A DNA stretch of 4,917 bases. Origin: a virus. Its lineage: Duplodnaviria > Heunggongvirae > Uroviricota > Caudoviricetes. Under the pieces are notes generated by a model. The model was given only the letters and a program-made list of their open reading frames with translations. It did no database searches and was not told the origin of the DNA. Shown in pieces: positions 1 to 4,917 of the stretch (position 1 is its first letter; every line of letters starts with the position of its first letter). The stretch is from the IMG/VR virus record IMGVR_UViG_2671180814_000001. One strand, 5' to 3'. A program made the position numbers and the translations under genes.

Positions 1-23
1 AAGGAGTGTCCGTTAAACTCAGG

Positions 24-389
24 CTACCTCATTCTGGCGAGTCGTTTTTTGGAGTGTTCGCGGGCTTTTTCCTCCGTCATCTGAATAATCAGCATATCAG
101 CAGGATCGCAAATCACGTTGTAAATCACCCAGCCGTCAATCAGGCCGATAGTCTTGCCGGTTCGTGCCGGGCCAACAAATATCACTGCGTCGTATTCACG
201 CGAGGCCAGGCAGTTCATCGGCTCAATAACATACGGTGCCACCAGCGGATCCCACGGGACTGAGTTCCCTGCCCCCATGGGCACCCGCATATACTGAGCA
301 ACGGCATCAGCAACCCGCATTCGTCTCGGTGCGCGAAGGATATAACCTGAATCGGTTCGTGCTGCCTTTGCGGTTTCCTGATTCAGCAT
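24..389 (-). CDS. Phage terminase large subunit (lambda gpA-like), N-terminal ATPase fragment; 121 aa, far shorter than the ~640 aa family norm, so probably truncated or a pseudogene
   Basis: ORF with ATG at 387-389 and TAG at 24-26. Walker A-like motif FVGPARTGKT, in a context that loosely parallels the lambda gpA N-terminus as recalled. The start overlaps the stop of the upstream Nu1-like gene (TAATG), matching the lambdoid Nu1-A arrangement. Only 23 nt remain to the window edge, so a frameshifted continuation cannot be assessed. Confidence 0.65.
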   Translation of the reverse strand: MLNQETAKAARTDSGYILRAPRRMRVADAVAQYMRVPMGAGNSVPWDPLVAPYVIEPMNCLASREYDAVIFVGPARTGKTIGLIDGWVIYNVICDPADMLIIQMTEEKAREHSKKRLARMR

Positions 390-883
390 TACTCCTCCTG
401 CTGTAATTCCTCCTCATCATCCGCACCTGCTTCAGTCACCCGCAGGGCTATCTGATCGCGCAGATCATCAATAATGGACTGAACACGGCTCACAGCGGCA
501 GGCTGCAGACCGCAGTCACGTTCAAGAATATCCGGTAATGTCTCCAGCACCTGCACGACCGCTTTTGCCCAGATGGCAAACTCCCGTCTGACATCACTGG
601 CCGGAATGAGTTGTGCCGTTTCCTGTTCGAACTTAAGACGCTCACGTTCAGACTGATACCAGGCTTTGCGCTCATGCGCGTCCATTTCGCCTTCTGCAAC
701 CGGCGGTGGTAATGCCAGAAATGCCGACACAATATCAACCACCCGATAAAGCTTGAGGTTGCTTTCATGCCCCCCTGCAACGGGTAGATTTTGCAGCCTT
801 GCCGCAGCAGTCTGGCGATGTACACCTGACAGTGCCGCCAGTTGACTGATATTCAGCGTCAGATTTTTTAACTCTCGATCCAT
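389..883 (-). CDS. Phage terminase small subunit / DNA packaging protein (lambda Nu1 family)
   Basis: 164-aa ORF. The N-terminal segment LNISQLAALSGVHRQTAAARLQNLPVAGG has the same pattern as the lambda Nu1 helix-turn-helix region (KKQLADIFGASIRTIQNWQEQGMPV), and the C-terminus is acidic. GGAG lies 8 nt upstream of the ATG at 881-883. It sits about 180 bp downstream of the cos-like site and directly upstream of the large terminase, with overlapping stop/start. Confidence 0.8.
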   Translation of the reverse strand: MDRELKNLTLNISQLAALSGVHRQTAAARLQNLPVAGGHESNLKLYRVVDIVSAFLALPPPVAEGEMDAHERKAWYQSERERLKFEQETAQLIPASDVRREFAIWAKAVVQVLETLPDILERDCGLQPAAVSRVQSIIDDLRDQIALRVTEAGADDEEELQQEE

Positions 884-1014
884 ACCCGCTCCAGAATGTT
901 TTAAACATGCATCTTGCGAACAACTTTAGGCAAACGGTGTTAGTGATGAACAAAAAACAATCAAAATCGACACCATAAAAATAAAACCACTGTAATATCA
1001 ATCCATTACAGTAG

Positions 1015-1075
1015 TGGTGATGACGAATGAAATTTCAAAAACTAGCCTTTTTCCGCGCCGCTCCCGCCCCGTGGC
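1015..1075 (-). other. Candidate cos site (cosN-like GC-rich core plus adjacent cosB-like sequence) of a lambda-type packaging system
   Basis: Minus-strand sequence CACGGGGCGGGAGCGGCGCGGAAAAAGGCTAGTTTTTGAAATTTCATTCGTCATCACC, compared with lambda cos as recalled from memory: ACGGGGCGGCGACCTCGCGGGTTTTCGCTATTTATGAAAATTTTCC...TTCGTCATAAC. Shared blocks are ACGGGGCGG, CGCGG, GCTA, TGAAA, TTTC and TTCGTCAT. It lies about 180 bp upstream of the Nu1-like start; the lambda spacing is about 190 bp. Confidence 0.55.
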
Positions 1076-1240
1076 AGGCCACCCCACCGGGAGGACCCGT
1101 CAGCCTGACAGCCATGACGAACGTCTGATACAGCGCCCTGCATGAATGACATCGGGATAATCCAGAAAGGAATAGCATCGTACCCACAAGAATCAGTGTA
1201 AGTGTCCTGTTTCTTCCACCCCCGCACAGGACTGGCGAGC

Positions 1241-1417
1241 ATGAGGGACAAACCCGCGAACCATAAACGCGGTAAAAACCCGGTGTGCATCGTTTTTGAT
1301 TATTCCCGCACACTCGCGCAGAAGGAGTTCCCCGTCGGGCTACGGTCATGGTTAATACGGGAATACGGCGACGATACAGCGCATGATGTGTCAGGCTTGA
1401 ATACCTTTATCCTTTAA
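1241..1417 (+). CDS. Hypothetical small protein (58 aa from ATG 1241; the ORF track starts at GTG 1202), opposite orientation to the late genes
   Basis: AGGA at 1228-1231 sits 9 nt before ATG 1241. A hairpin with a T-run on the plus strand follows about 50 nt downstream (1464-1490). The position between Rz and cos, on the opposite strand, is where lambda carries bor, but the protein is not Bor-like and I do not recognise it. Confidence 0.25.
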   Translation: MRDKPANHKRGKNPVCIVFDYSRTLAQKEFPVGLRSWLIREYGDDTAHDVSGLNTFIL

Positions 1418-4874: not shown

Positions 4875-4903
4875 AGCATAACCAATTTTGGTGATGCTGC
4901 CAA
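4875..4903 (-). promoter_or_regulatory. Candidate sigma70 late promoter (pR'-like)
   Basis: On the minus strand: TTGGCA (-35, 4898-4903), a 17-nt spacer, and TATGCT (-10, 4875-4880). The predicted start is about 55 nt upstream of the terminator T-run. The Q gene would lie beyond the right edge of the window. Confidence 0.35.
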
Positions 4904-4917
4904 CTTACTGATTTAGT

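Follow-up and report, generated by a model that had tools for sequence, protein, structure and literature searches.

Lambda-like phages are defined by cohesive ends that follow a common plan: cosQ is highly conserved among them, as are the left half of cosN and the CG dinucleotides that flank it, and base pairs 7 to 12 of the cohesive end often vary (at 9 and 12 in N15, and at 8, 9 and 11 in Gifsy-1, which is among the lambda-like cos phages; PMC4669245). On the other side of cosN, the cosB segment has a usual layout of R3-I1-R2-R1, as in lambda, phi80, 21 and Gifsy-1, with the R3 site of lambda at base pairs 50 to 65 (PMC9026076). Here, we analyzed a putative cos site in a 4,917-nt stretch of DNA from a tailed virus (IMG/VR record IMGVR_UViG_2671180814_000001), hereafter called the window. 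Coordinates refer to this whole stretch, the phage strand is its minus strand, and plus and minus offsets are counted from the predicted top-strand nick. We propose, with a probability of about 0.87, that the minus strand from 1098 to 941 is the cos site of a lambda-like E. coli prophage of the mEp460/cdtI group and that it derives from a common ancestor with lambda cos. Homology, the pattern of conservation, co-variation with the small terminase (TerS), position and a consensus binding site for integration host factor (IHF) were all observed and favour this assignment. The site is an ordinary representative of a widespread and well-understood kind of lambda-like cos; it adds one further example to an established picture and does not challenge current understanding.

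An initial annotation of this DNA had recognized a lambda-type cos site upstream of the small terminase gene, at 1015-1075. Our results agree with the type of site, based on cosQ, cosN and I2 segments that lie in register with lambda and on the spacing to terS, but not with its extent, which runs from about 1098 to 941. The minus-strand sequence quoted in that annotation was recovered from 1080 to 1011 (GGCCTGCCACGGGGCGGGAGCGGCGCGGAAAAAGGCTAGTTTTTGAAATTTCATTCGTCATCACCACTAC). When the window was set side by side with the right and left ends of lambda, the minus strand was found in register with lambda cos from 1098 to 1028: the compared lambda ends read ACGGGTCCTTTCCGGTGATCCGACAGGTTACG / GGGCGGCGACCT / CGCGGGTTTTCGCTATTTATGAAAATTTTCC and the window reads ACGGGTCC-TCCCGGTGGGGTGGCCTGCCACG / GGGCGGGAGCGG / CGCGGAAAAAGGCTAGTTTTTGAAATTTCAT. 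Most of the ordered blocks listed at first (ACGGGGCGG, CGCGG, GCTA and TGAAA(T)TT) fall in the lambda register. The block TTCGTCAT, however, was mistaken for a lambda match: it occupies +43 to +50 here and +67 to +74 in lambda and is therefore 24 nt out of register. The strongest additional block, the cosQ heptamer GGGTCCT at 1098-1092, had not been listed. The small-terminase ATG is located at +187 here and at +191 in lambda, so that the spacing is indeed close to that of lambda, as first stated.

The alignment to lambda that had been suggested as a check yielded similarities above chance in register-fixed and global tests. Without gaps, 25 of the 45 positions from +1 to +45 were identical to lambda, a value equalled by 7 of 20,000 dinucleotide-preserving shuffles. 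The global alignment of -32 to +45 reached a score of 16 relative to -12.9 +/- 5.2 for the shuffles (z=5.6), and none of 5000 shuffles equalled it. When a 77-nt lambda probe was slid along both strands of the whole window, the top score was obtained at this site. Two results weigh against the relationship with lambda. A stringent Smith-Waterman local alignment against lambda was not significant on its own (158 of 2000 shuffles equalled it) and found only the cosQ block, and when phage records were searched with the cos region by BLAST in both near and distant modes (E<=1e-3), closer relatives were retrieved and lambda was not. Given this weak local alignment and the missed BLAST hit, we consider the similarity to lambda to be real but short and block-wise. 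Several sequences link the two sites. Four loci (L023, L043, L131 and L133) present GGGCGGGAGCGG followed by CACTATTTATGAAAATTTTTCGG, which is identical to lambda +23 to +45 at 21 of 23 positions; the variant core is thus also found joined to a nearly lambda-identical I2 segment, together with a Nu1-like TerS. Intermediate cosN sequences were found in mEp213 and Fels-1.

We then considered how the site is conserved across relatives, using exact-pattern scans of IMG/VR (two scans, 133 distinct loci listed together) and of metagenomes (one scan), for which all counts are lower bounds. At least 135 copies of CACGGGGCGGGAGCG were found in IMG/VR, with further ones in metagenomes. Among the copies listed, conservation starts exactly at GGGTCCT, following several unrelated upstream contexts. 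The 50 unique window-type sequences listed have an invariant cosQ, a variable spacer and a segment from -8 to +56 that is almost invariant except at base 12. Beyond +33, several distinct sequence types can be told apart, and in about 110 loci listed each type goes with a single TerS allele and vice versa, with the ATG located from +184 to +197. The TerS allele of the window and the allele that accompanies MDHELKNLVLNI (terS of locus L018) illustrate this pairing: the two proteins are identical from about residue 58 and differ in the N-terminal ~55 amino acids, including the helix-turn-helix region (HRQTAAARLQN in the window, HRQTVVARLKN in the other allele), and their cosB sequences differ from +33 to +130. 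This suggests that cosB specificity tracks the DNA-binding domain of TerS. The association is correlative and would follow the logic seen in lambda and 21, in which cosN is shared and cosB is specific to each TerS. This prophage type is common: the 2.3 kb around cos was covered over at least 80% of its length in 727 of 5426 complete E. coli genomes (about 13%).

A different source of conservation would be an open reading frame (ORF) of 82 amino acids, at 1290-1042 on the minus strand, which overlies cosQ and cosN and which the records of mEp460 and vB_EcoS-569R4 list as a 'hypothetical protein'. We evaluated coding by this ORF as the cause of conservation and rejected it: the ORF is intact in 23 of the 125 distinct cosN-bearing sequences listed and disrupted in 102, and the cos block is kept in all of them, also in those with unrelated upstream DNA. 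The conservation of cos is therefore not due to coding, and the ORF is probably a spurious gene call. Taken with the sharp boundary at cosQ and the pairing of cosB types with TerS alleles, this speaks for a functional DNA site. The weak stringent alignment, the missed BLAST hit and the placement of an ORF across the site by gene callers would all be expected if the resemblance to lambda were accidental or the conservation were that of a gene. We nevertheless find both explanations highly improbable, considering the significant register-fixed and global tests and the fact that the type of cosB follows the TerS allele. Separately, we observed that about 97 nt of the upstream DNA (window 1204-1300) are 98-99% identical to a segment near the right end of the Lambda-type phages 2B8, 4A7, Lambda_4C10, 1W and 3W. 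These phages otherwise do not carry this cos region, and the segment resembles a mosaic junction upstream of cos.

The cos site of the window opens with the cosQ-like heptamer GGGTCCT (1092-1098, minus strand), which is identical to lambda 48473-48479 and lies inside ACGGGTCC-T.CCGGTG. It is separated from the predicted top-strand nick by 29 nt here and by 30 nt in lambda. The spacer between cosQ and cosN (1072-1091, minus strand) is variable in sequence: among the relatives listed, positions -20 to -9 are free to vary, unlike cosQ and the motif TGCCACG on either side, which are constant. The cosN segment itself, CG/GGGCGGGAGCGG/CG (1056-1071, minus strand; slashes mark nicks), presents the left half GGGCGG and both CG flanks in the lambda register. 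Based on homology only, the nicks are predicted between 1070 and 1069 on the top strand and between 1058 and 1057 on the bottom strand. Because CG dinucleotides flank the 12-bp core as they do in lambda, the predicted overhang is GGGCGGGAGCGG (1069 to 1058), the same 12-nt end that the initial annotation had put forward, and virion DNA cut at this cosN would carry the 5' extension 5'-GGGCGGGAGCGK. The exact nick positions, the length of the overhang and the cosB bases contacted by TerS are the predicted parts of our description. In the literature, a search for the cohesive-end string gave no hits other than unrelated G-rich sequences.

Relative to lambda, the core is identical at bases 1-6 and 10, and all the differences are found at base pairs 7, 8, 9, 11 and 12. 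The initial annotation had read these differences as a sign of altered nicking specificity of the terminase. This reading does not follow: all five differences fall in the naturally variable half of cosN, and in lambda-like phages changes in this right half have no measurable effect on cleavage, with the terminases of lambda and N15 cutting either cosN equally (PMC4669245). Moreover, base 12 is polymorphic among the matches listed (107 copies with T, 27 with G), and a single TerS/cosB type can have either base. Given the natural variability of base pairs 7-12 and this polymorphism, no change in nicking specificity can be deduced from the core. What the differences would predict instead is that the cohesive ends of this site are unable to anneal with those of lambda.

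The ends of deposited genomes offer a partial view of where related sites are cut. The records of cdtI (AB285204) and Tritos (OV696610) open at the base equivalent to 1069 and close at the equivalent of 1070 (starting with GGGCGGGAGCGT / GGGCGGGAGCGTCGCGGAAAAAGG and finishing with ...CCTGCCACG). Several observations weigh against the predicted nicks. Tritos was extracted from a prophage, its source paper is silent on how the ends were set, and the starts of both records may have been chosen by their depositors from homology to lambda and not from end mapping. In addition, the virion-derived record of mEp460_4F5 (LR595868) opens 5 nt earlier (CCACGGGG...), its core lacks 3 nt, and among the ~240 contigs listed from IMG/VR and metagenomes, none begins or ends at the nick. 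The core measured from the left nick to CGCGG is 12 nt long in the window, lambda, mEp213, Kp4865-4 and Fels-1, but 11 nt in VT1-Sakai, 10 nt in CP-1639 and Stx2_14040 and 9 nt in mEp460_4F5. Either these short cores stem from errors made at cos during sequencing or assembly, or the cohesive ends truly differ in length. As a consequence of such 9-11 nt cores, overhang length is not set by homology across the wider group. The short cores lie at positions 1-20 of locus L001 and around 930-950 of loci L142, L146 and L147.

These data bear on the alternative that the site is a genuine cos whose nicks or overhang are not lambda-style, for instance with a left end at CCAC (window 1074) or an overhang shorter than 12 nt. 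The start (CCACGGGGCGGGAGCGCGG) and finish (...GGCCTG) of the mEp460_4F5 record, the short spacing between left nick and CGCGG in the four phages just named, and a large terminase with only limited identity to lambda gpA (see below) are what such a site might present. We judge this alternative unlikely. The CG dinucleotides of the window bracket the 12-bp core exactly like those of lambda, and such flanks are conserved (PMC4669245). Two records, those of cdtI and Tritos, open at GGGCGG. The shorter core of mEp460_4F5 was found in one of the 135 copies listed and may be an assembly artefact at cohesive ends, and the method used to set the ends of this record is unstated in its source paper. We thus retain lambda-style nicks around a 12-nt core as the preferred prediction for the window.

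Downstream of cosN, the window presents an I2-like spacer (CGCGGAAAAAGGCTAGTTTTTGAAATTTCA; 1028-1057, minus strand) that was defined by ungapped alignment to lambda +13 to +42. It is near-invariant in the 50 unique relatives listed and is common to all cosB types up to about +33. The next block, TTCGTCATCACCAC (1014-1027, minus strand; +43 to +56), is a candidate equivalent of R3, the first small-terminase site, as judged from its position and conservation; it closes the invariant stretch and differs between TerS alleles among the relatives listed. By comparison, lambda R3 (5'-CGTTTCCGTTCT) begins at +53. Within this block, a candidate motif lies at +47 (TCATCACCAC); TCATCACCA, at the same offset, is repeated directly as TCATCACTA at +121 (a 9-mer with 1 mismatch). 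This second copy (941-949, minus strand; +121 to +129) is a candidate R1-like direct repeat. At the position expected for R2, a weak candidate for an inverted element, ATGGTGTCGA (967-976, minus strand; +94 to +103), was suggested by the layout of relatives. In Fels-1 and VT1-Sakai, the +45 motif of each recurs clearly in inverted form at the R2 position (CATCATCAT / GATGATGAT), and GTTCATCAC or GTTCGACATC is found at the R1-like position across cosB types. Relatives with other cosB types repeat their type-specific motif near +45, +95 and +120 as a direct, an inverted and again a direct copy, which corresponds to the R3-I1-R2-R1 layout. That the R2-like and R1-like elements are weak in the window itself counts against its assignment as a lambda-like cos.

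Between the R3-position block and the weaker repeats, the window carries a perfect match to the IHF consensus, TATCAATCCATTA (WATCAANNNNTTR), at 996-1008 on the plus strand (+62 to +74 in phage-strand offsets). This is the sole perfect match in the window, with 0.23 expected. A perfect consensus was found in 55 of the 56 unique relatives listed, at +62 in 53 of them, and its four N positions occur as 8 combinations. In lambda, an IHF match with 1 mismatch has the same orientation and is located at +79, with R3 on one side and R2 on the other. Overall, cosB resembles that of lambda in position and architecture (an R3-position block, an IHF site and weaker repeats), but this resemblance is not one of sequence homology. 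The IHF core is surrounded by an 11-nt inverted repeat (986-996 and 1005-1015, with an 8-nt loop) whose arms are 91% complementary. A hairpin or covariation interpretation of 986-1015 was tried and rejected: the arms are mostly kept, but many single-sided breaks and one clearly compensated variant were found. Since the arm variation is mostly uncompensated, we do not claim a structural role for this repeat. It seems doubtful, although conceivable, that a compact cosB with the IHF core inside an 11-bp palindrome, together with an overhang or right nick that is not fixed at 12 nt, characterizes the branch of phages with DUF1441 and GpA terminases. If this were true, the terminase would be positioned in this branch by a mechanism unlike that of lambda despite the conserved cosQ and left half of cosN.

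The gene downstream of cos encodes a small terminase of 164 amino acids (389-883, minus strand) that matches Pfam DUF1441 (E 2.7e-41) and phrog_141, 'terminase small subunit' (E 7e-74). Its relation to Nu1, the small terminase of lambda, had been stated in the initial annotation as a Nu1-like protein and is more distant than this wording implies. The window TerS also matches phrog_57, the Nu1 family (E 8e-10), and Nu1 matches phrog_141 (E 5.6e-8); using hhalign, TerS and Nu1-type sequences were collinear over 138 columns from the N-terminal helix-turn-helix onwards (E 1.8e-4). These cross-matching families and collinear profiles suggest that the small terminase is a remote homologue of Nu1. 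The hhalign probability was only 49%, which tempers the parallel with lambda, and the protein belongs to DUF1441. BLASTP did not detect similarity between the window TerS and Nu1, and a comparison with PDB sequences gave no match. A single-sequence AlphaFold (AF2) model of TerS had a mean predicted local distance difference test (pLDDT) score of 66 and a poor N-terminus.

The large terminase gene (terL) follows as a 5' fragment of the GpA type (24-389, minus strand; homology from 389 to 32; Pfam GpA_ATPase E 4.5e-22), whose stop codon was created inside an insertion sequence. The fragment is identical to the N-terminus of mEp460 TerL over 119 of 119 residues and diverges afterwards. Full-length mEp460 TerL and lambda gpA share 25% identity (E 2e-19). 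As far as these comparisons go, the cos DNA site is better conserved than the proteins that would act on it. The gene is truncated by the terminal 31 nt of IS600 (window 1-31), which have 6190 matches of 100% identity in E. coli genomes, as many as 43 in a single genome; the NZ_AP018784 match adjoins an IS600-family transposase fragment, and homology to intact terminase genes begins at window 32. Since IS600 cut terL after codon ~119, the prophage is a remnant that does not self-package, and no intact cognate terL is left in cis. This affects a further statement of the initial annotation, namely that cos marks the physical end of the phage genome between a left and a right arm: the arms were oriented correctly, but in this copy cos is not the end of a self-packaging phage. 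At the other side of the window (4880-4917), the last ~29 nt (ggtgatgctgccaacttactgatttagt, from about 4889) have 56,692 matches in E. coli genomes, and many of these are plasmid-borne. We take this end to be the terminal inverted repeat of IS1. With an IS600 end at the left and the end of a multi-copy element at the right, the prophage fragment is bounded by insertion sequences on both sides. Such fragments are typical of Shigella-like genomes.

This copy is thus a dead end, in which cos and terS are intact and terL is destroyed by IS600. With its own terL gone, the site could be cleaved only by a matching terminase provided in trans. Use of the relic cos in this manner would imply that a co-resident or infecting phage of the same cosB specificity mobilizes the adjacent DNA, as in satellites or cosmids. 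Several observations are compatible with this scenario: cos is intact at every conserved base although TerL is destroyed, the terS gene is intact, potential helpers are common given the frequency of this prophage type in complete E. coli genomes, and satellite-like elements with cos sites of this family exist. The state of cos would be explained equally well, however, by a recent insertion that left no time for decay, and there is no sign of selection on this copy. Furthermore, lambda-type packaging yields a viable particle only when another cos, oriented alike, lies about one genome length away, and none is present in the window. We therefore consider use in trans to be rather improbable, slightly more so than nicks of a different style. 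If it did occur, an intact relic cos would be a possible entry point for helper-driven packaging.

In a separate observation, we found what resembles an integrative satellite-like element inserted in the terL gene of a window-type prophage (L015 1-11983; also L037, L084 and L216). The genes of L015-type elements encode a P4-type integrase, a Bro-N protein, an AAA_25 replication-type protein, SSB, a fused ClpP-protease/capsid protein and a DUF1441 TerS. The element possesses two cos sites 2,536 bp apart that share the same cosQ and cosN and have different cosB types; one of them is not followed by terS.

Other genes of the window provide the context of the site. Its minus strand corresponds to a lambdoid prophage late region, with cos where lambda has cos. 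From the upstream end, it encodes an S21-type holin (4699-4484), a lysozyme (4484-3987), Rz (4002-3532), a KilA-N protein (3330-2833) and an 85-aa phrog_875 protein located between the KilA-N gene and a run of 184 N (2282-2465). Another lysozyme, which is partial, and another Rz follow on the same strand (2281-1699), and about 800 bp without assigned gene, with short unverified ORFs only, separate the second Rz from terS. The window therefore presents two lysis cassettes, an S-R-Rz set (4699-3532) and a partial R plus Rz (2281-1699), with the N gap between them. The halves of the window on either side of this gap match different loci in complete E. coli genomes, so that the window may have been scaffolded from two pieces of prophage or may be recombinant.

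Considering all elements together, a mechanism can be proposed for an intact relative of this prophage. The DUF1441 TerS would bind allele-specific cosB sites through its N-terminal helix-turn-helix, aided by a bend induced by IHF; its sites would be the R3-position block from +43 to +56 and the weaker repeats near +94 and +121. Bound TerS would then position the GpA-type large terminase so that cosN is nicked on both strands beside the conserved CG dinucleotides, yielding the 12-nt 5' overhang GGGCGGGAGCGG as the left end. Packaging would proceed toward the terminase and head genes until the next cos, where cosQ (GGGTCCT), cosN and the I2 spacer would direct the terminating cut. The position of cos tells where to linearize and annotate phages of this E. 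coli prophage type, which is very common. The current records of mEp460, Ayreon and vB_EcoS-569R4 open at the start of terS and do not annotate cos; in those of mEp460 and Ayreon, the region is labelled as a hypothetical protein.

How the site compares with known systems depends on the distance of the relative. Lambda shares with the window GGGTCCT, the nick CG/GGGCGG with another CG 12 bp beyond it, an IHF site that follows the first TerS site, and a downstream gene for a GpA-family TerL. It differs by its R sequence, CGTTTCC.TTCT, of which there is none in the window; the candidates of the window are of the TCATCAC type and lie ~7-10 nt nearer to cosN. Fels-1 presents GGGCGGCAGCGG, which differs from the window at a single base (bp 7), and has a DUF1441-type TerS and the same layout of sites. 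Unlike the window, it has clear cosB repeats (CATCATCAT / GATGATGAT / CATCATC), and no GGGTCCT was found at the corresponding place in the stretch that was read. The cos of mEp213/LLS (putative 5'-GGGCGGCGCGCT) was likewise deduced by homology (PMC12315714). It shares with the window the same cosQ, the left half CCACG/GGGCGG, the CG flank and TCATCATCATC at the R3 position. Closer to the window, cdtI and Tritos have the same cosQ, spacer and cosN through +33 apart from base 12 (T instead of G), the same TerL family and a TerS in phrog_141, whereas their cosB past +33 (GCATTTCCATGGCGGCGGCAGCATG...) is associated with a different TerS allele of 179 amino acids. Finally, mEp460, Ayreon and vB_EcoS-569R4 are 96-97% identical to the window in the cos region and carry the same TerS and TerL alleles. 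These three are complete phages, whereas the window has lost most of its TerL.

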